The notes under the pieces were generated by a model. That model did no database searches. It saw only the letters and a list, made by a program, of their open reading frames with translations, and had not been told where the DNA came from. Both the position numbers and the translations under genes were made by a program. Shown here one piece after another: positions 1 through 6,274 of a stretch of DNA of 6,274 nt (position 1 is its first letter; the number at the start of each line of letters is the position of its first letter). The stretch is from a virus (Duplodnaviria > Heunggongvirae > Uroviricota > Caudoviricetes): the IMG/VR virus record IMGVR_UViG_2703718849_000001, positions 1 to 6,274 of that record; one strand, given 5' to 3'.

Positions 1-97
1 ATGGTGTCCCCTGCAGACATCTACTTGAAGCGACAGGGGATTGATTGGAATGGTGTTTTTTAGATGTGAAAAATATTTTACCCGCTATTTTACCCAT
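1..97 (-). CDS. Possible 5' end of an integrase gene (N-terminal fragment running off the left edge)
   Basis: Minus-strand ATG at 97..95 opens a frame (MGKIAGKIFFTSKKHHSNQSPVASSRCLQGTP...) with no stop down to position 1. It overlaps the excisionase stop (92..90) by 8 nt, the usual xis-int arrangement. No clear Shine-Dalgarno; the integrase call is positional inference only. Confidence 0.3.
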   Translation of the reverse strand, partial: MGKIAGKIFFTSKKHHSNQSPVASSRCLQGTP

Positions 98-290
98 TGG
101 CGCGGCTTAAGAGCTTATTTTTGAATTCACAATGGTCACGATATAACCATCTTGCTCGCCCGTGGATAACTTTGGCTTTAGGCAGGTCTCCGGACTTAAT
201 CCGGTCATAGATGAAGGTTTTACCGAAGCCAGTATCGGCCATGATGAATTTCAAATCAACCAGGGAATCAGGCTGTAGTTCGTGTTGCAT
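90..290 (-). CDS. xis: AlpA-family excisionase / prophage DNA-binding regulator (66 aa)
   Basis: ATG at 290..288 with GGAG about 9 nt upstream, TAA at 92..90. The pattern ...LKFIMADTGFGKTFIYDRIKSGDLP...RWLYRD... fits the AlpA/Xis helix-turn-helix family signature as I recall it (TG-x5-IY ... LP ... W). Sits at the distal end of the leftward operon. Confidence 0.7.
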   Translation of the reverse strand: MQHELQPDSLVDLKFIMADTGFGKTFIYDRIKSGDLPKAKVIHGRARWLYRDHCEFKNKLLSRANG

Positions 291-330
291 GAGTGCTATC
301 TCCGAATAGGGAATCGAACCTGCAAATCAG

Positions 331-358
331 GCAATAAAAAACCGCCATCAGGCGGCTT
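331..358 (-). terminator. Rho-independent terminator candidate (minus strand)
   Basis: Stem ccgcc (342-346) / ggcgg (351-355) with 4-nt loop, followed on the minus strand by UUUUUUAUU (plus 333-341). The TGA stop of the small ORF 348..515 lies in the loop. Confidence 0.45.
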
Positions 359-515
359 GGTGTTCTTTCAGTTCTTCAATTCGAATATTGGTTACGTCTG
401 CATGCGCTATCTGCGCCCATATCATCCAGTGGTTATAGCAGTCGTTGATGTCCTCTGCTTCGATAACTCTGTTGAATGGTTCTCCATTCCATTCACCTGT
501 GACTCGGAAGTGCAT
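348..515 (-). CDS. Small hypothetical protein (55 aa), below the ORF-track cutoff
   Basis: Hand translation gives MHFRVTGEWNGEPFNRVIEAEDINDCYNHWMIWAQIAHADVTNIRIEELKEHQAA. ATG at 515..513 is preceded by GGAG with 7-nt spacing; TGA at 350..348. It occupies the slot between lar and xis where Rac carries ydaC (order recalled, not checked). Confidence 0.55.
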   Translation of the reverse strand: MHFRVTGEWNGEPFNRVIEAEDINDCYNHWMIWAQIAHADVTNIRIEELKEHQAA

Positions 516-523
516 TTATCATC

Positions 524-553
524 TCCATAAAACAAAACTCGCCGTAGCGAGTT
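524..553 (-). terminator. Hairpin plus U-tract, terminator candidate (minus strand)
   Basis: Stem aactcgc (536-542) / gcgagtt (547-553), loop cgta; on the minus strand it is followed by UUGUUUUAU, immediately upstream of the SD of the 348..515 ORF. Confidence 0.35.
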
Positions 554-615
554 CAGATAAAAGAAATCCCCGCGAGTGCGAGGATTGTTATTCACCTTTG
601 ACGGCAAGTTGCAGG

Positions 616-918
616 TTAGCCATGGTTAACCTCCTGCGGAGTAGCCTTTACAAGCACTGGTGTAAATCCATCTTCATTAAGGTTATGAATATAGACTTCC
701 GTTCTCCTGCGCTCTTCAGCGTTTAATATGGTTTCTGGATCATAAACCCATACTTTCATTCGACTATTCCATGAAGAAATCGCTTCAGATTTAGTTCGTT
801 TTTCTGGTCCTTGGGCACCACATTTGCATGACACATAGCGCATTTTCCCTCTGATACTGAATGAGTATCCGATGTTAAGCACAGTGGAACCACAGAATGG
901 GCAGCGATATAGATTCAT
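616..918 (-). CDS. lar: Lar-family restriction-alleviation protein (zinc ribbon), 100 aa
   Basis: ATG at 918..916 with AAGGTGG about 8 nt upstream, overlapping the upstream gene's TGA (ATGA). N-terminal CPFCG ... CKCGA two-CxxC motif and ISSWNSR match the Lar family as I recall it. Confidence 0.65.
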   Translation of the reverse strand: MNLYRCPFCGSTVLNIGYSFSIRGKMRYVSCKCGAQGPEKRTKSEAISSWNSRMKVWVYDPETILNAEERRRTEVYIHNLNEDGFTPVLVKATPQEVNHG

Positions 919-1511
919 AAATCATCCACCTTAGGCGCAGCTGAGACAGCAACATTCCAGAACTCAGAAAACATATTGTATGCACCAGATAGATTGGAAG
1001 TGGCATACCCTCCAAGCTCACTTCTAATCTGAACGGCTCTCATCATTTCCGGGGTTAACTCCTTCGGCACCATAACCCAACCATCCGGAATTACCGGAGA
1101 GTTGCCGGGTTCTTTAATGTGCAAGCGAGGCTCACCATCTTTTGGCTCAGGCCACTGGCGCTCCATGTTGATCTTCAATTTATCTTCCATAGCAGCGGTA
1201 ATTTCAGCATCGCTGATGCAAGCACGGCGCTGTGCATCCCACAACAGAAACTGCATATCAGCCCACTCGCTAAGATCGTCTGGTTCGGCTGCGGCTTCCA
1301 GTGCCTCTTTTGAGAGATGTTTCAGCGGACCAATGGGGCCAACGCAGCCAAATGTGGAGTCAGACCATTTGGCATGCTCGTGGCGAATCTGTTCGCGTTC
1401 CAGTGATGCCAGTGCAATCCGTGCCAGTTCCATTTGTTCGCCACGGGTAAGCCCGTTATCAAGCGGATTTTTAATGAATAATTCGATACGTTCTTTGGTA
1501 ATAGTGGTCAT
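915..1511 (-). CDS. Hypothetical phage protein (198 aa), acidic
   Basis: ATG at 1511..1509 with AAGGTGA SD at 9-nt spacing; long uninterrupted ORF; stop overlaps the lar start. No family recognised. Confidence 0.75.
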   Translation of the reverse strand: MTTITKERIELFIKNPLDNGLTRGEQMELARIALASLEREQIRHEHAKWSDSTFGCVGPIGPLKHLSKEALEAAAEPDDLSEWADMQFLLWDAQRRACISDAEITAAMEDKLKINMERQWPEPKDGEPRLHIKEPGNSPVIPDGWVMVPKELTPEMMRAVQIRSELGGYATSNLSGAYNMFSEFWNVAVSAAPKVDDL

Positions 1512-1513
1512 AG

Positions 1514-1705
1514 CTATTTCACCTTAATCTCAACATTTCGCAGCTTTAGCTCTACTGGCAGGTCTGACTTTCCTGTTAATGCTAATGCGAGATTTTCTGG
1601 GGTAATGAGAGCAGTTATTGCTTTCCCCATTGCCAGACGAATAATTATTCGTATTTCGCGATCGTCACATGCTCCTGGTAGAACGATTGATATTTGTCCG
1701 TCCAT
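1514..1705 (-). CDS. Hypothetical small protein (63 aa)
   Basis: ATG at 1705..1703 preceded by AGGAG (6-nt spacing) inside the end of the upstream gene; 1 nt separates the upstream TGA from this ATG, and its own TAG is 2 nt from the next ATG. Confidence 0.6.
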   Translation of the reverse strand: MDGQISIVLPGACDDREIRIIIRLAMGKAITALITPENLALALTGKSDLPVELKLRNVEIKVK

Positions 1706-1706
1706 C

Positions 1707-2114
1707 TCACTCTCCTTTGATGCGAATGCCTGCGGCGCGGATTGCAGCGATGACTTCAGAAACTTTGTATGCCATTACCGTTTGGTAATCATCGTGAAAA
1801 TCTGTTCGATGAAGCATGCTGCTACGTTCCGGGAGCGATATTTCCCGCGCTTCCAGTTCTGCAATGCGCTTTTTTGCTGCTTCCAGTTCATCCAGTAATT
1901 CCAGTACGGTAGCCGGATTAGCCTTGGCAACAAAATCCCGGACTGGCTTACAATCAATCTCCGCAATGGGTTGATACGATGTGTAGCCATGCTGTCTTGT
2001 ATAACTACCGTGACGAATAACAAAAAAATCACCATTTATTTTTTTAGCCTGCCACTTATCTTCACCGGCTTTCTCTGCCGCTTCACGCAGTGCCTGATAG
2101 TCAATCTTGTTCAT
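1707..2114 (-). CDS. Ead/Ea22-like family protein (135 aa)
   Basis: ATG at 2114..2112 with GGTGA SD. Central coiled-coil segment ATVLELLDELEAAKKRIAELEAR resembles the ead/Ea22-like proteins of lambdoid early-left regions (recollection). Confidence 0.7.
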   Translation of the reverse strand: MNKIDYQALREAAEKAGEDKWQAKKINGDFFVIRHGSYTRQHGYTSYQPIAEIDCKPVRDFVAKANPATVLELLDELEAAKKRIAELEAREISLPERSSMLHRTDFHDDYQTVMAYKVSEVIAAIRAAGIRIKGE

Positions 2115-2115
2115 G

Positions 2116-2415
2116 TCACATCACCCTGAATCCGTTGCATTTACGTAAGAAATCGCAGATATAGCCCTTCATTTTTTCATGACAATCTCGATCATTCCCA
2201 TTGCACCAACCATCAGGTGGAGTCCAGTTTTCTATCAGAGCAGCCATTTTCTTTGCTTTCGCCGGAGTAGCTGTTGCGGTATCGCAGTAATGACGAGTGT
2301 CAACCAACGCATCCATACCATCGATATCAAGTACGCAAAACCATGTGTGATTCGGAATTCCTACAGGTGGTATTTGTTGCCCACGTCGACGTTTATCAAT
2401 AAGATATACACTCAC
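2116..2415 (-). CDS. Hypothetical Cys-rich protein (99 aa from GTG)
   Basis: The ORF-track frame 2116..2436 begins with GTG at 2436; a second in-frame GTG at 2415..2413 is preceded by a perfect AGGAGG (2427..2422) with 6-nt spacing and overlaps the TGA of the upstream 55-aa ORF (GTGA). C-terminal C-x7-C-x9-C-x6-C spacing. Confidence 0.6.
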
Positions 2416-2579
2416 TGCTTGCCTCCTTTGCGCCACATCGCATTCAGATATTTGTTTTGATTTACTGACGGAAAAGAATTTCTCTTAAGCAATTCCTCTC
2501 TCGATGGCATTGGCTTTACGCGTTGGCGAATAATCATTTCTGCCGGAAGAATGCCGGGGTTGTATGCAAGTCCTCTCAT
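2412..2579 (-). CDS. Small hypothetical protein (55 aa), below the ORF-track cutoff
   Basis: Hand translation gives [58 protein letters not shown] at 2579..2577 overlaps the TGA of the upstream gene (ATGA) and has GGAG 6 nt upstream; its own TGA overlaps the downstream GTG start. It fills an otherwise empty 160-nt gap exactly. Confidence 0.5.
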
Positions 2580-2866
2580 GATTTACTCTCCACGAACTGG
2601 TCAATAGCCATGCTAAGTGACATACCTAAAGTCTCGATATGCTGCTGAATATCCTGTAGCGTCTGCGCCTGAGATAACAGGATTTCACGGTTGCATAACT
2701 CTTTAACCAGATGCTCAAACTTGCTGTAATAACCGATACGGCTTAGTGTTTCTTTCCCTGCATTCTCGCCTTCTTTGATAATTCCTCTTTCGCTAAGAAT
2801 CAGATCGTGTTTTGTTCCGGTAATAACGTATTTTCCGAGGTCGATGTTTAGCTTCATTGTTTTCAT
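2576..2866 (-). CDS. Hypothetical protein (96 aa)
   Basis: The 146-aa track ORF starts at TTG inside the upstream gene. The ATG at 2866..2864 ([14 protein letters not shown]...) lies 10 nt past the upstream TGA with GAGGA SD at 7-nt spacing, so the gene is trimmed to 2576..2866. Confidence 0.65.
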
Positions 2867-2876
2867 TGTTAATTCC

Positions 2877-3170
2877 TCAGTCATTACTGATAGCGCCATA
2901 GCGTGAGCGGTAATTACGCAGGCGCGGGTCGATTTCAGGGAAGTGGGTATATGTGGCTTTGCGGAATGGTCGGATTGATGTCTGGTAAATTCGCTCTCGT
3001 TCTTCTTTCTCTGCAAGCCATATGCAGTGGCGAAACTCCTTTTCCTCTTTCGTTTCCTGCGGTAGAGACATTATTCGATCGTAGTTTTTTCTGAATTTAT
3101 CCAGCACCTCCGATACGGAATTGCCGGAACAGCGGCGCGCGTCATCCGCACCATACAGAGGCGCTGGCAT
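2877..3170 (-). CDS. Hypothetical protein (97 aa), basic
   Basis: ATG at 3170..3168 with AAGGA SD about 8 nt upstream; TGA at 2879..2877. No family recognised. Confidence 0.65.
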   Translation of the reverse strand: MPAPLYGADDARRCSGNSVSEVLDKFRKNYDRIMSLPQETKEEKEFRHCIWLAEKEERERIYQTSIRPFRKATYTHFPEIDPRLRNYRSRYGAISND

Positions 3171-3193
3171 AATTAAATCCTTATTTTTCTAAA

Positions 3194-3577
3194 TCAGAAT
3201 GGGATGGAATCGTCGTATACAGGAGTGTTCTGCTGGTTACTACTTTGCTGCTGCGGGCCATTTCCTGAAGCTGCAAATCCAATCTTTGCATTCAGTAATT
3301 CAAGAGTGATTGATTGACAATTTTGCCCCTGATAAACATCAACCCTGATGTTTTCTCCGGTAATTTCCACAATGCCACCTTCAACAAGAACACTACGGTA
3401 GTAATCCGCTTGCGCTCCCGGCTTGGCAAATACAACGGCGCTGTAGTTTGTCCATTCTTTCTTTTTTGTCTGGCGATCGTAATGCTGAACTCCAGCACGG
3501 ATGTTGAATCCGATATTTTCCCCGGCCTGAAACTCTCTTGCGGGCTTGTTTAGTCTTACAGTAATCGAATGTGCCAT
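3194..3577 (-). CDS. ssb: Phage SSB-like single-stranded DNA-binding protein (127 aa) with acidic C-terminal tip
   Basis: C-terminus ...NTPVYDDSIPF matches the conserved SSB tail (E. coli SSB ends DDDIPF), preceded by a Gln/Ser-rich linker. The ATG at 3577..3575 (MAHSITV...) overlaps the Erf TAA (TAATG); the track's 157-aa version is an out-of-frame upstream extension. Confidence 0.75.
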   Translation of the reverse strand: MAHSITVRLNKPAREFQAGENIGFNIRAGVQHYDRQTKKKEWTNYSAVVFAKPGAQADYYRSVLVEGGIVEITGENIRVDVYQGQNCQSITLELLNAKIGFAASGNGPQQQSSNQQNTPVYDDSIPF

Positions 3578-4182
3578 TAAGCAGCAGCTCCTTCTAATTC
3601 GTCTCGTCTGATGTTGTAAACGTCCTGCGCTTTGTGCTGCTCCGGTGTGCCTTCGAGCATCTTCCACGCTTTGGCGAACGCCTGTTTAAGCTCTTCTACG
3701 GTGTTTTTCTGCATTGCTGCGTCAGTGAATGCTTTTAGAACCTGTTCAGGTGTAGGTAATGGTTTTGATTGCTTTGCTGCTGCGTTCTGCTGATGTTTAT
3801 GCTCGTCGGTATCTGCATCTTTCGCATCATCAATGCCGAATAAACCATTGAGGCAATACTTGCGTGCATAAGAGCTTGTAGCTCCCGTAACTTGTGCAGA
3901 ATCCATTCCTTTCTTGCTTTCTTCCTCTCGTGCAAGAGCGGTTGCTTTATGACTGTTTTCGCCATCAGTAATAGTTGCCGTTGCTTTCACGTAATACCGA
4001 TCACCAATCAACACAACTTCATCGCTGATTGATAAAAACAGGCCATTCAGTAACGGCTTAACACCCTCAAGAATGTCTTCGCAGCTTCTGTATTTATATT
4101 TGCCGAATGAGTTGTATTGATTCTTTGGCGCGTTCAGATTCTCCTGAATAGCTGCCAGCCTTGCGTAAAATTCTTTGCTCAT
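3577..4182 (-). CDS. erf: Erf-family single-strand annealing recombinase (201 aa)
   Basis: From the ATG at 4182..4180 the protein begins MSKEFYARLAAIQENLNAPKNQYNSFGKYKYRSCEDILEGVKPLL..., which matches my recollection of P22 Erf. The track's start is a TTG at 4212, 10 codons upstream. TAA overlaps the ssb start. Confidence 0.8.
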   Translation of the reverse strand: MSKEFYARLAAIQENLNAPKNQYNSFGKYKYRSCEDILEGVKPLLNGLFLSISDEVVLIGDRYYVKATATITDGENSHKATALAREEESKKGMDSAQVTGATSSYARKYCLNGLFGIDDAKDADTDEHKHQQNAAAKQSKPLPTPEQVLKAFTDAAMQKNTVEELKQAFAKAWKMLEGTPEQHKAQDVYNIRRDELEGAAA

Positions 4183-4283
4183 ATGTTTGTTCTCAGAATG
4201 GACATTCCCCAAGGAAATAACGCTGATTTAATACTTCGACTCGGGACAAATTAAGGCATACCCGCATTCCTTCGCGGTCGCCA

Positions 4284-4442
4284 TTATGGCGATGCCAGAG
4301 AGCTTTCTGCGTGTACATGCGTCTCTGTAACTTGCTCTCCTTCACTGTGGTTGCAAGTGACATGAATATCTCCTTCGTTACCGATTAATTCTTTCATCTG
4401 ACGAATGAATTCTTCGTCTGACCAGTTATCTGTAAAACTCAT
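4284..4442 (-). CDS. Small acidic hypothetical peptide (52 aa) between kil and erf
   Basis: Hand translation gives MSFTDNWSDEEFIRQMKELIGNEGDIHVTCNHSEGEQVTETHVHAESSLASP. ATG at 4442..4440 overlaps the kil TGA (ATGA); TAA at 4286..4284. No SD beyond the coupling; function unknown. Confidence 0.4.
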   Translation of the reverse strand: MSFTDNWSDEEFIRQMKELIGNEGDIHVTCNHSEGEQVTETHVHAESSLASP

Positions 4443-4591
4443 TTCCTGCGATACCACGGAAGGTTGATAGCTGATTTCATCGCTTTATTTGCTTCAAGCC
4501 ACATTTTTGAATCACCAATAAATCTGGCTATTACTGCTTTGTTCTGTGCAGCACGAAGCATCTGGTGATTGATGGCTATTTCATTGCGCAT
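4439..4591 (-). CDS. kil: Kil-like host cell-division inhibitor peptide (50 aa)
   Basis: Hand translation gives MRNEIAINHQMLRAAQNKAVIARFIGDSKMWLEANKAMKSAINLPWYRRK. The IA-x-FIGD-x-KM segment and the position directly downstream of, and overlapping, cIII fit lambda Kil as I recall it. GGAGG lies 4 nt upstream of the ATG at 4591. Confidence 0.5.
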   Translation of the reverse strand: MRNEIAINHQMLRAAQNKAVIARFIGDSKMWLEANKAMKSAINLPWYRRK

Positions 4592-4710
4592 AACGCCTCC
4601 AGTTGTTTCTTTGCTGCTCTGATTAATTGTTTAACTCGGCGTGATAATTCAGATTCGTGCGGGTAGAAAGCGGACATGACGCCGCTACCCGCGAGCTGAA
4701 AGTGCATCAT
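4576..4710 (-). CDS. cIII: CIII-like FtsH inhibitor peptide (44 aa)
   Basis: Hand translation gives MMHFQLAGSGVMSAFYPHESELSRRVKQLIRAAKKQLEALCAMK. GGAG lies 6 nt upstream of the ATG at 4710. The N-terminus and the central amphipathic helix ESELSRRVKQLIR align with lambda CIII (MQYAIAG...ESLLERITRKLRD, from memory). Confidence 0.6.
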   Translation of the reverse strand: MMHFQLAGSGVMSAFYPHESELSRRVKQLIRAAKKQLEALCAMK

Positions 4711-4740
4711 GGGTAACTCCTTATATTTGATTGCATAACG

Positions 4741-4765
4741 AAAACGCCTCAAGTGAAGCGTTATT
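4741..4765 (-). terminator. Hairpin plus U-tract, terminator candidate (minus strand) between ea10 and cIII
   Basis: Minus-strand RNA forms an 8-bp stem AACGCUUC / GAGGCGUU (one G-U wobble), loop ACUU, followed by UUCGUUAU. The plus-strand RNA would have a mismatch instead, so the structure is strand-specific. Confidence 0.35.
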
Positions 4766-4785
4766 GGTATGCGGTAAAGCCGCGC

Positions 4786-5154
4786 TCAGGCGGCTTTGAT
4801 AGTCATATCATCTGAATCAAATATTCCTGATGTATCGATATCGGTAATTCTTATTCCTTCACTACCATCCATTGGAGGCCATCCTTCCTGACCATTTCCA
4901 TCATCCCAGTCGAACTCACAAACAACACCATATGCATTTAAGTCTTTCGAAATTGCTATAAGCAGAGCATGTTGCGCCAGCATGATTAATACAGCATTTA
5001 ATACAGCGCCGTGTTTATTGAGTCGGTATTCAGAGTCTGACCAGAAATTATTAATCTGGTGAAGTTTTTCCTCTGTCATTACGTCATGGTCGATTTCAAT
5101 TTCTATTGATGCTTTCCAGTCGTAATCAATGATGTATTTTTTGATGTTTGACAT
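4786..5154 (-). CDS. ea10: Ea10-like early-left protein (122 aa)
   Basis: ATG at 5154..5152 with GAGGA SD at 9-nt spacing; 122 aa, the size and position of lambda Ea10 between ral and cIII. Sequence identity to Ea10 is recollection only. Confidence 0.6.
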   Translation of the reverse strand: MSNIKKYIIDYDWKASIEIEIDHDVMTEEKLHQINNFWSDSEYRLNKHGAVLNAVLIMLAQHALLIAISKDLNAYGVVCEFDWDDGNGQEGWPPMDGSEGIRITDIDTSGIFDSDDMTIKAA

Positions 5155-5171
5155 CTATTCATATCCTCATA

Positions 5172-5200
5172 GATAAAAAATCGCCCTCACACTGGAGGGC
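5172..5200 (-). terminator. Rho-independent terminator candidate (minus strand) upstream of ea10
   Basis: Minus-strand stem GCCCUC / GAGGGC (plus 5183-5188 / 5195-5200), 6-nt loop, followed by GAUUUUUUAUCU. The plus-strand downstream flank is A/G-rich, so it is orientation-specific. Confidence 0.5.
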
Positions 5201-5295
5201 AAAGAAGATTTCCAATAATCAGAACAAGTCGGCTCCTGTTTAGTTACGAGCGACATTGCTCCGTGTATTCACTCGTTGGAATGAATACACAGTGC

Positions 5296-5508
5296 TTATT
5301 CGCGAGCTTTGAGCATGGCATCAGCAATAAAGTAGGCATCATCTGCTAATTCTTTGTACTGTGGTGAATTCTGTCCACCGCCAAAGGAATGTCCGTCCCA
5401 TCTGCGCACTATTGCTGCCATAGCCTTAGCAGCGAAGTAATCACGTAATGTCGCATCACTTGCCATTTCTGGGCGTTTGATATCTGCTTCATAAAACTCG
5501 CACATCAT
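5296..5508 (-). CDS. Hypothetical protein (70 aa)
   Basis: Tandem ATG ATG at 5508..5503 preceded by GGAGGTGA; the first ATG overlaps the TGA of the upstream 44-aa ORF (ATGA). No family recognised. Confidence 0.6.
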   Translation of the reverse strand: MMCEFYEADIKRPEMASDATLRDYFAAKAMAAIVRRWDGHSFGGGQNSPQYKELADDAYFIADAMLKARE

Positions 5509-5639
5509 TCACCTCCAAGAGCATTTGCAGCCTCTTTTGCTTTGTGAATCCATAGCAGAGCCATGCAGTACACAGCCTTTTCGTCGGCTCCTGTGATATC
5601 TTGCTCTGCCATCCATTTTGTAAATTCAACTGTGTTCAT
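5505..5639 (-). CDS. Small hypothetical protein (44 aa), below the ORF-track cutoff
   Basis: Hand translation gives MNTVEFTKWMAEQDITGADEKAVYCMALLWIHKAKEAANALGGE. ATG at 5639..5637 with GAGGTGA just upstream; TGA overlaps the start of the 70-aa gene. Confidence 0.45.
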   Translation of the reverse strand: MNTVEFTKWMAEQDITGADEKAVYCMALLWIHKAKEAANALGGE

Positions 5640-5660
5640 ATTCACCTCTGTTGTTTATGC

Positions 5661-5688
5661 CAAAAATAAAGGCCACCATCAGGCAGCC
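5661..5688 (-). terminator. Rho-independent terminator candidate (minus strand) immediately after ral
   Basis: Minus-strand RNA: GGCUGCC-UGAU-GGUGGCC (7 bp including two G-U wobbles) followed by UUUAUUUUUGG. The ral TGA (5681..5679) sits in the loop. The plus-strand RNA would have C-A mismatches. Confidence 0.5.
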
Positions 5689-5879
5689 TTGTTATTCTGT
5701 TTACCAAGTTCTCTGGCAATCATTGCCGTCGTTCGTATTGCCCATTTATCGACATATTTCCCATCTTCCATTACATGAAACATTTCTTCAGGCTTAACCA
5801 TGCATTCCGATTGCAGCTTGCATCCATTGCATCGCTTGAATTGTCCACACCATTGATTTGTATCAATAGTCGTAGTCAT
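5679..5879 (-). CDS. ral: Restriction-alleviation protein Ral (66 aa)
   Basis: MTTTIDTNQWCGQFKRCNGCKLQSECMVKPEEMFHVMEDGKYVDKWAIRTTAMIARELGKQNNKAA is near-identical to lambda Ral as I recall it, and of the same length. ATG at 5879..5877. Confidence 0.85.
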   Translation of the reverse strand: MTTTIDTNQWCGQFKRCNGCKLQSECMVKPEEMFHVMEDGKYVDKWAIRTTAMIARELGKQNNKAA

Positions 5880-5949
5880 ACGGATAGTCCTGGTATTGTT
5901 CCATCACATCCTGAGGATGCTCTTCGAACTCTTCAAATTCTTCTTCCAT
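5863..5949 (-). CDS. Orf28-like acidic peptide (28 aa) overlapping the ral start
   Basis: Hand translation gives MEEEFEEFEEHPQDVMEQYQDYPYDYDY. ATG at 5949..5947 with GAGGTGA upstream; TGA at 5865..5863, overlapping ral by 17 nt. This matches the lambda orf28/ral arrangement as I remember it. Confidence 0.35.
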   Translation of the reverse strand: MEEEFEEFEEHPQDVMEQYQDYPYDYDY

Positions 5950-5957
5950 ATCTCACC

Positions 5958-6274
5958 TCAAATAAGTGGTTTGCTGCCTAATTTCATTTTCTGGCGACCA
6001 ACACAAGTCACCCCCATTTCACTGCGTGGCTTGCTGTACCATGTGCGCTGATTCTTGCGCTCAATACGTTGCAGGTTGCTTTCAATCTGTTCGTGGTATT
6101 CAGCCAGCACTGTAAGGTCTATCGGATTCAGTGCGCTTTCTACTCGTGATTTCGGTTTGCGATTCAGCGAGAGAATAGGGCGGTTAACTGGTTTTGCGCT
6201 TACCCCAACCAACAGGGGATTTGCTGCTTTCCATTGAGCCTGTTTCTCTGCGCGACGTTCGCGGCGGCGTGTTT
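5958..6274 (-). CDS. N: Antitermination protein N (5' end truncated by the window edge; about 4 codons missing)
   Basis: The minus-strand frame is open from 6272 down to the stop at 5960..5958: TRRRERRAEKQAQWKAANPLLVGVSAKPVNRPILSLNRKPKSRVESALNPIDLTVLAEYHEQIESNLQRIERKNQRTWYSKP...PLI. The arginine-rich motif and most of the sequence match lambda N (MDAQTRRRERRAEKQAQWKAANPLL...); the C-terminal roughly 25 residues diverge. The track's TTG start at 6212 is an artefact. Confidence 0.9.
   Translation of the reverse strand, partial: TRRRERRAEKQAQWKAANPLLVGVSAKPVNRPILSLNRKPKSRVESALNPIDLTVLAEYHEQIESNLQRIERKNQRTWYSKPRSEMGVTCVGRQKMKLGSKPLI

Follow-up and report, generated by a model that had tools for sequence, protein, structure and literature searches.

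Among the described systems closest to the gene considered here, Lar of the Rac prophage and Ral of phage λ are believed to boost de novo methylation by EcoKI, though how they do so is unknown, and λ Ral combines restriction alleviation with modification enhancement of type IA systems (PMC3177214). Going by the way in which King and Murray (1995) are cited in PMC4041452 and PMC3177214, Rac Lar is the only family member that has been tested for EcoKI restriction alleviation. The same protein, under the name RalR, has also been reported as a non-specific DNase toxin with a small RNA antitoxin, RalA; its residue K52 is needed for both toxicity and DNase activity, and the K52Q variant is inactive (PMC4041452). 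In a preprint, type IV systems are furthermore suggested as a possible target of a Lar-like gene carried by phage Bas63 (PMC11482910).

The gene described here lies in a 6,274-nt stretch of DNA (positions 1 to 6,274 of IMG/VR record IMGVR_UViG_2703718849_000001; hereafter, the window), which corresponds to the early leftward part of a mosaic lambdoid/P22-like prophage and finds its best partial matches in Sf6 and HK633. On the same strand as the Lar-like gene, the window encodes the C-terminal part of N, Ral, DUF2528, Kil, Erf, an SSB-like protein and Abc2, as well as Ead/Ea22, DUF550, a 55-aa ORF and an excisionase/TorI homologue. The Ral gene is complete:

5679..5879, minus strand: full-length λ-type Ral (PF11058, 160 bits, 66/66 model positions)

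Two unrelated genes of 'restriction alleviation' families are carried per prophage, both in the window (Ral and the Lar-like gene) and in Sf6 (gp35 and gp20). Since Ral is present as a separate full-length gene, the Lar-like gene is an addition and not a replacement. Its layout is as follows:

616..918, minus strand: complete Lar-family ORF of the Sf6 gp20 type, with 100 codons, an ATG start and a TAA stop at 616..618
760..918, minus strand: predicted Lar zinc-ribbon domain, residues 1-53 (PF14354 and TIGR03655 above cutoffs; Foldseek; AlphaFold2)
820..903, minus strand: span of the putative zinc-ligand Cys codons, C6 at 901..903, C9 at 892..894, C31 at 826..828 and C33 at 820..822
619..759, minus strand: clade-specific C-terminal tail, residues 54-100 (invariant residues, dN/dS, AlphaFold2)

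The original prediction had read a Lar signature (CPFCG...CxC...WN-R) in the N-terminal part of a 100-aa protein, and both elements are borne out. The ORF, which is intact from its ATG, translates into MNLYRCPFCGSTVLNIGYSFSIRGKMRYVSCKCGAQGPEKRTKSEAISSWNSRMKVWVYDPETILNAEERRRTEVYIHNLNEDGFTPVLVKATPQEVNHG, in which the signature appears as CPFCG ... CKC ... WNSR and in which the tail sequence that the prediction had quoted recurs exactly; on the coding strand, stop codons interrupt the other two reading frames across 616..918. PF14354 (Lar_restr_allev, curated cutoff 28.6 bits) matches residues 2-53 with 36.1 bits (E 7.8e-9, Pfam), TIGR03655 (anti_R_Lar, cutoff 39.6 bits) matches residues 3-54 with 59.5 bits (E 3e-16, NCBIfam) and 55/55 model positions covered, and the PHROG family phrog_599, a 'Lar-like restriction alleviation protein', matches residues 1-99. 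The Lar assignment of the N-terminal half is well beyond chance. In an alignment of 69 diverse Lar-family proteins, C6, C9, C31, C33 and W50 are invariant and P7, A46, N51 and R53 nearly so, and all of these residues are present in the 100-aa protein. The four-Cys cluster of the Lar half (CPFCG ... C-x(1,2)-C) is the predicted set of zinc ligands, and it is from this motif that we infer zinc binding.

The structural predictions point in the same direction. AlphaFold2 models the Lar half as a β-hairpin (14-21 / 24-31) followed by a helix (43-52) that ends in WNSR, with a pLDDT of about 92 over residues 11-50. When the model was compared by Foldseek with the viral models of BFVD, annotated Lar proteins filled most of ranks 2-16, with probabilities mostly of 0.99-1.00 (three at 0.80-0.85) and most alignments spanning ~52-66 columns, so the predicted fold agrees with that of other Lar proteins. 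A search by sequence for a solved structure returned none with E below 0.4, the PDB holding no Lar structure, and the PADLOC defence-system models gave zero matches. What sets the protein apart from the prototype is its size: instead of a single domain of ~55-65 aa it comprises 100 aa, 47 of them past WNSR. The figure of about 64 aa that the prediction gave for Rac Lar is correct, as both the K-12 genome and PMC4041452 give 64 aa. As discussed below, short single-domain size is not truly a defining trait of the Lar family.

The C-terminal extension had been described as unassigned, which holds for the domain models: a tail of ~47 aa (residues 54-100) lies past the PF14354 and TIGR03655 matches. 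Within the clade, homologues share about 65% overall identity alongside 12 invariant tail columns (E69, R70, R71, T73, Y76, I77, L80, G84, F85, P87, A92 and E96). By the Nei-Gojobori method, dN/dS is 0.13-0.29 in the tail (counted as codons 54-97) versus 0.06-0.21 in the Lar half (codons 1-53), at a dS of about 0.5-2 in all pairs but one, the exception being a recombination case (L014, discussed below). Variable sites in both comparisons fall mostly on third codon positions, and no indels occur before residue 98 across lineages with a dS of about 1-2. The tail is a true coding sequence in the Lar frame and is under purifying selection, as its dN/dS, the lack of indels, the 12 invariant residues and a reproducible predicted β-α-β arrangement attest. 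Specifically, two AlphaFold2 runs, based on alignments of 16 and 69 sequences, returned identical secondary structure with mean pLDDT of 78 and 85, and place in the tail a strand at 57-59, a helix at 67-82 and a strand at 88-90, the final ~5 residues being disordered. In both runs, pLDDT is 80-90 over residues 51-90, with a dip at residues 51-60. On these models, the tail seems to fold into a β-α-β unit for which no analogue is recognisable.

Could the locus nevertheless hold two genes, or a frameshifted fusion of a short Lar gene with a 47-aa gene that starts at Met54? Public annotation would seem to say so, because PGAP splits the locus into a 'Lar family, missing C-terminus' entry and a 47-aa hypothetical protein in E. 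coli EC7518 and E. coli O26:H11 11368, 47-aa entries are present in protein databases and Met54 is invariant. However, the 100-codon ORF is uninterrupted in both genomes (L002 6101-6403 in EC7518; L015 1501-1803 in O26:H11 11368), and the 47-aa 'hypothetical proteins' WP_000870096.1 and WP_000870097.1 come from genomes in which it is intact. The frame is continuous in every lineage despite a dS of ~1-2, the tail never adjoins anything except a Lar domain, and Met54 lacks a Shine-Dalgarno (SD) sequence, in contrast to the true start, which has an AGGAGG-type SD before it in all homologues. In the window, this start reads:

915..932, minus strand: translation-initiation region, with SD AAGGTGG at 926..932, a 7-nt spacer and ATG at 916..918

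The ATG overlaps the TGA of the upstream dATP/dGTP pyrophosphohydrolase (DUF550) gene as ATGA (915..918), and in the examined relatives the start likewise overlaps by 4 nt with an upstream gene, DUF551 or Ead/Ea22, and has a strong SD, an arrangement that points to translational coupling of the Lar-like gene to its upstream neighbour. Internal initiation at Met54 was considered separately and rejected, as there is neither an SD nor a clear excess of synonymous constraint. As such, the frameshift and two-gene readings are rejected; what the original prediction had named as a possible undoing, a sequencing frameshift splitting two genes, is largely refuted by the ORF being intact in every relative, and such a reading now seems extremely improbable. 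The recurrent split by PGAP arises because the tail falls outside the Lar model. It creates spurious orphan proteins and pseudogene calls, in what may at most be well over a hundred E. coli genomes, and the combination of a conserved clade-specific tail with recurrent mis-annotation is worth a note.

The distribution of the tail is narrow. When 1.84 billion representative proteins were searched in HMMER with a profile of the tail only, just three true clusters came up, all in the gene's own clade, and among these representatives the tail never occurs without a Lar domain, annotation artefacts aside. Eight further hits of this profile (P0021-P0028), all long proteins, were dismissed as noise, each having matched via 4-7 short stretches; the three that were inspected are an ankyrin-repeat protein, a KH-like-repeat protein and another tandem-repeat protein. 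A word-indexed search with the tail alone yielded nothing but entries that are truncated or split, plus a single deletion chimera. In this chimera, a 74-aa protein from an ENA metagenome (P0019), the N terminus of an antiterminator N-like protein is joined to the last 24 residues of the tail, presumably because a degenerate prophage has lost its whole early-left region from N up to the Lar-like gene. The gene itself is found in 154 of 5,426 complete E. coli genomes, always with at least 95% identity, and also in phage Sf6, in Stx1a-converting phages and in Enterobacter and Citrobacter prophages, the proteins of the Citrobacter and Enterobacter prophage relatives being 65-70% identical. A scan of genome contigs produced a single locus (Citrobacter), and the breadth given here is taken from the protein searches. 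Judged by these searches, the tail appears confined to a small clade of Escherichia/Shigella, Enterobacter and Citrobacter prophages, the Sf6 gp20 type, whose members are all 98-100 aa long, apart from a recombined variant of 128 aa (P0006).

Across the Lar family as a whole, length is far less uniform. Annotated phage Lar proteins measure 55, 60, 64, 67, 81, 100 and 194 aa, and among 109 cluster representatives recovered with a Lar-domain profile, a sample biased towards relatives of the query alignment, the median extension past WNxR is 21 aa (interquartile range 19-47, maximum 250). The same sample contains tandem Lar duplications and fusions to other domains. C-terminal extensions thus appear routine in the Lar family, but this type of tail does not. 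The unusualness of the extension that the original prediction implied survives in part: the tail is restricted to its own clade among the 1.84 billion representatives, but other extensions are common and the clade members share one length. Likewise, family members are not routinely ~100 aa with this tail, an outcome that the prediction had set against itself, although within the clade they are.

The 3' end of the gene carries features of a different kind:

588..635, minus strand: gene-junction motif in the ORF 3' end, with AGGAGG at 630..635 ('QEV' codons) and an out-of-frame ATG at 621..623
586..565 and 554..535, minus strand: two tandem terminator-like hairpins between the Lar-like gene and the next gene (348..515)

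The ATG at 621..623 opens an 11-codon stub (MANLQLAVKGE, then a stop) of an ASCH-domain gene. The stub is also present in Sf6, and it matches the N terminus of an ASCH gene that in E. coli O26:H11 overlaps the 3' end of the ORF by 8 nt, as well as that of a gene lying downstream of the homologue in L012, an Enterobacter prophage. At its very end, the tail reads A-x-P-Q-x-E-V-K/N; these residues encode the AGGAGG that serves the next gene, and they resemble the C-termini of upstream DUF551 genes (…PAAPQQEAL before the stop). The final ~8 residues (A-x-P-Q-x-E-V-x) are largely dictated by this SD-bearing junction motif, which would couple translation to, and recombine with, neighbouring modular genes. 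In Enterobacter hormaechei, a recombinant (L014) has a Lar half with ~97% DNA identity to L012 and a tail with 95-100% identity to a further relative (L010), the crossover lying at codons 46-58, the invariant WNSRM(K/R)VW junction. In the 128-aa protein P0006 (L014 4001-4387), the tail runs on into ECKHEFVYSPLGWQHSFRYGYLCRFCGKLQKEG, the C-terminal module of the DUF551 gene upstream of the Lar-like gene in L010; this extra module appears to have come in through recombination at the SD-bearing motif that both genes share (AAPQxE). In the window, the upstream coupled gene (915..1511, minus strand) is built around a dATP/dGTP pyrophosphohydrolase core (DUF550, PF04447), and its segments towards the two termini match several PHROGs that differ from one another. 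From one prophage to another, the gene just upstream of the Lar-like gene may be DUF550, DUF551, Ead/Ea22 or a hypothetical gene, which illustrates module shuffling at the Lar-gene junction.

Hairpins mark this boundary as well. Across 280..1100, five terminator-like sites were found versus 0.6 expected from shuffles, and the tandem pair, which follows the ASCH stub, is kept downstream of Sf6 gene 20; both hairpins are candidate intrinsic terminators. A further terminator-like hairpin (339..358, minus strand) lies past the next gene (348..515). Similar GC-rich hairpins (AAAaCCGCCatCAGGCGGCTT) occur at 338-358, 1449-1469, 4776-4796 and 5669-5689; apart from the copy at 1449-1469, which lies inside the DUF550 ORF, they are all located just past gene ends. 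This hairpin family looks like a set of reused terminator or boundary elements of a mosaic operon.

The available data are compatible with a model in which a single intact gene of the leftward early operon encodes a Lar zinc ribbon with a clade-specific β-α-β tail that serves as an early anti-restriction or host-takeover protein, a reading that is probably right. The gene sits in the pL, N-antiterminated operon, and its product would be made early after infection or induction. Like Rac Lar, it would then act on a host nucleic-acid enzyme complex, the classical target being a type I restriction-modification enzyme in which methylation would be favoured over cleavage. In this model, the conserved activity would reside in the zinc ribbon, and the invariant, exposed E-R-R-x-T patch on the amphipathic helix of the tail may provide a further surface, for interaction or oligomerisation, by which partner specificity is tuned. 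By analogy with Rac Lar, we infer that the protein is most likely an early host-takeover or anti-restriction protein whose tail is an added interaction subdomain. Two observations count against this explanation: the operon already encodes full-length Ral, so that there would be redundancy if the Lar-like protein had this anti-type-I activity too, and the sole experimentally studied homologue, Rac Lar/RalR, is only 34% identical over 52 residues and has itself been reported as a non-specific DNase toxin.

The coexistence with Ral, which acts on type IA enzymes, makes a different target for the Lar-like protein conceivable. The β-α-β tail might retarget the zinc ribbon to another host system, for instance a different type I family, a nuclease-based defence (type IV or other) or a recombination/repair complex, with the invariant E-R-R-x-T / Y-I-x-x-L / G-F-x-P surface as the specificity determinant. 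This is a tentative proposal and on balance a doubtful one; if true, the C-terminal extensions of Lar proteins would constitute a modular 'adaptor' layer of phage anti-defence. A toxin of the RalR type, that is, a small metal-dependent non-specific DNase with an sRNA antitoxin and a tail that modulates toxicity, is suggested by the homology to RalR over residues 2-53, by the DNase activity and toxicity reported for that protein (PMC4041452) and by the NCBI name of its close relatives, 'type I toxin-antitoxin system endodeoxyribonuclease toxin RalR'. Yet K52, the one residue whose necessity has been shown in RalR, is a serine here, at a position that is variable across the family (WNxR). In Rac, ralA lies immediately downstream, whereas the 6.3-kb window contains no inverted repeat of at least 14 nt (seed 10) that involves 616..918 and no relevant Rfam match for a RalA-like partner. 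Both the serine and the missing RalA-like sequence argue against a RalR-style toxin-antitoxin module, and the gene is, moreover, carried by viable phages (Sf6 and Stx1a phages) in a translationally coupled operon, which together leave this reading unlikely.

The tail could also be a formerly independent protein or domain that was captured by fusion and whose function is unrelated to Lar activity. The crossover at codons 46-58 in the E. hormaechei recombinant places a recombination breakpoint at the domain junction, the models give the tail a β-α-β unit of its own behind the pLDDT dip, and in Rac the small gene rcbA lies directly 3' of ralR. However, among the 1.84 billion representatives the tail has no homologue that stands alone or is fused differently, and its likeness to the 21-aa tail of another Lar subfamily does not rise above chance. 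Nor does the tail resemble RcbA: a direct comparison by BLASTP gave no alignment, and an RcbA-like fusion was rejected. Capture of a foreign domain is thus quite unlikely, and the preferred reading stays that of an early anti-restriction or host-takeover protein with an added subdomain.

Taken together, these results give no sign of a new kind of system. The gene is already known, being catalogued as Sf6 gp20 and, in many genomes, as 'Lar family restriction alleviation protein', and among the accessory genes of a mosaic prophage it is an ordinary one. At the same time, a natural Lar variant with a predicted well-folded extra subdomain that sits beside Ral offers a handle on whether Lar tails set target specificity, which is useful as Lar and Ral have no established mechanism (PMC3177214) and the Lar family still lacks a solved structure.

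Set against the known systems, the protein shares with Rac Lar/RalR (E. coli K-12 b1348, 64 aa) membership of the PF14354/TIGR03655 family, the four-Cys zinc ribbon, the helix and WNxR, as well as the position as a prophage early gene near int/xis, but the alignment covers residues 2-53 only. Rac Lar/RalR ends in the 11-residue, Gly/Asn-rich TTGNNNGGVHV, whereas the window protein ends in a 47-residue tail that is predicted to be folded; the second Cys pair is CxxC in the former and CxC in the latter, and WNKR, with K52, is replaced by WNSR, with Ser52. Rac also has adjacent ralA and rcbA genes, neither of which is seen in the window. λ Ral (PF11058) is a functional analogue in the same pL operon that is not homologous to the Lar-like protein, and its model finds no match in the 100 aa. 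The ~82-aa Lar-like proteins of Salmonella, Klebsiella and Escherichia siphophages, a large subfamily (for instance STGO-35-1 gp29, IME207 and Vi II-E1), likewise combine the Lar domain with a conserved short extension, in their case a 21-residue tail (GHLYTADDFNQAAEERDYGL), and differ by an N-terminal leader, MxAPHMPMMNDEGLLE. On the surface, their tail resembles the first third of the tail in the window protein, and an hhalign comparison with this subfamily gave 97.9% probability and carried the alignment to residue 70; homology between the two tails was nevertheless rejected, as a tail-only HMM scored -0.7 bits and 939/5,000 shuffles did as well.

The closest counterpart is gp20 of Sf6 (NP_958196.1, 'Lar-like restriction alleviation protein'), for which the literature searched held no functional study. 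It is 99% identical over all 100 residues and occupies the same position in the early-left operon, with the same downstream hairpins and ASCH stub and with Ral likewise present in the phage. The upstream neighbour is Ead/Ea22 in Sf6 and DUF550 in the window; otherwise, the two are essentially the same gene.
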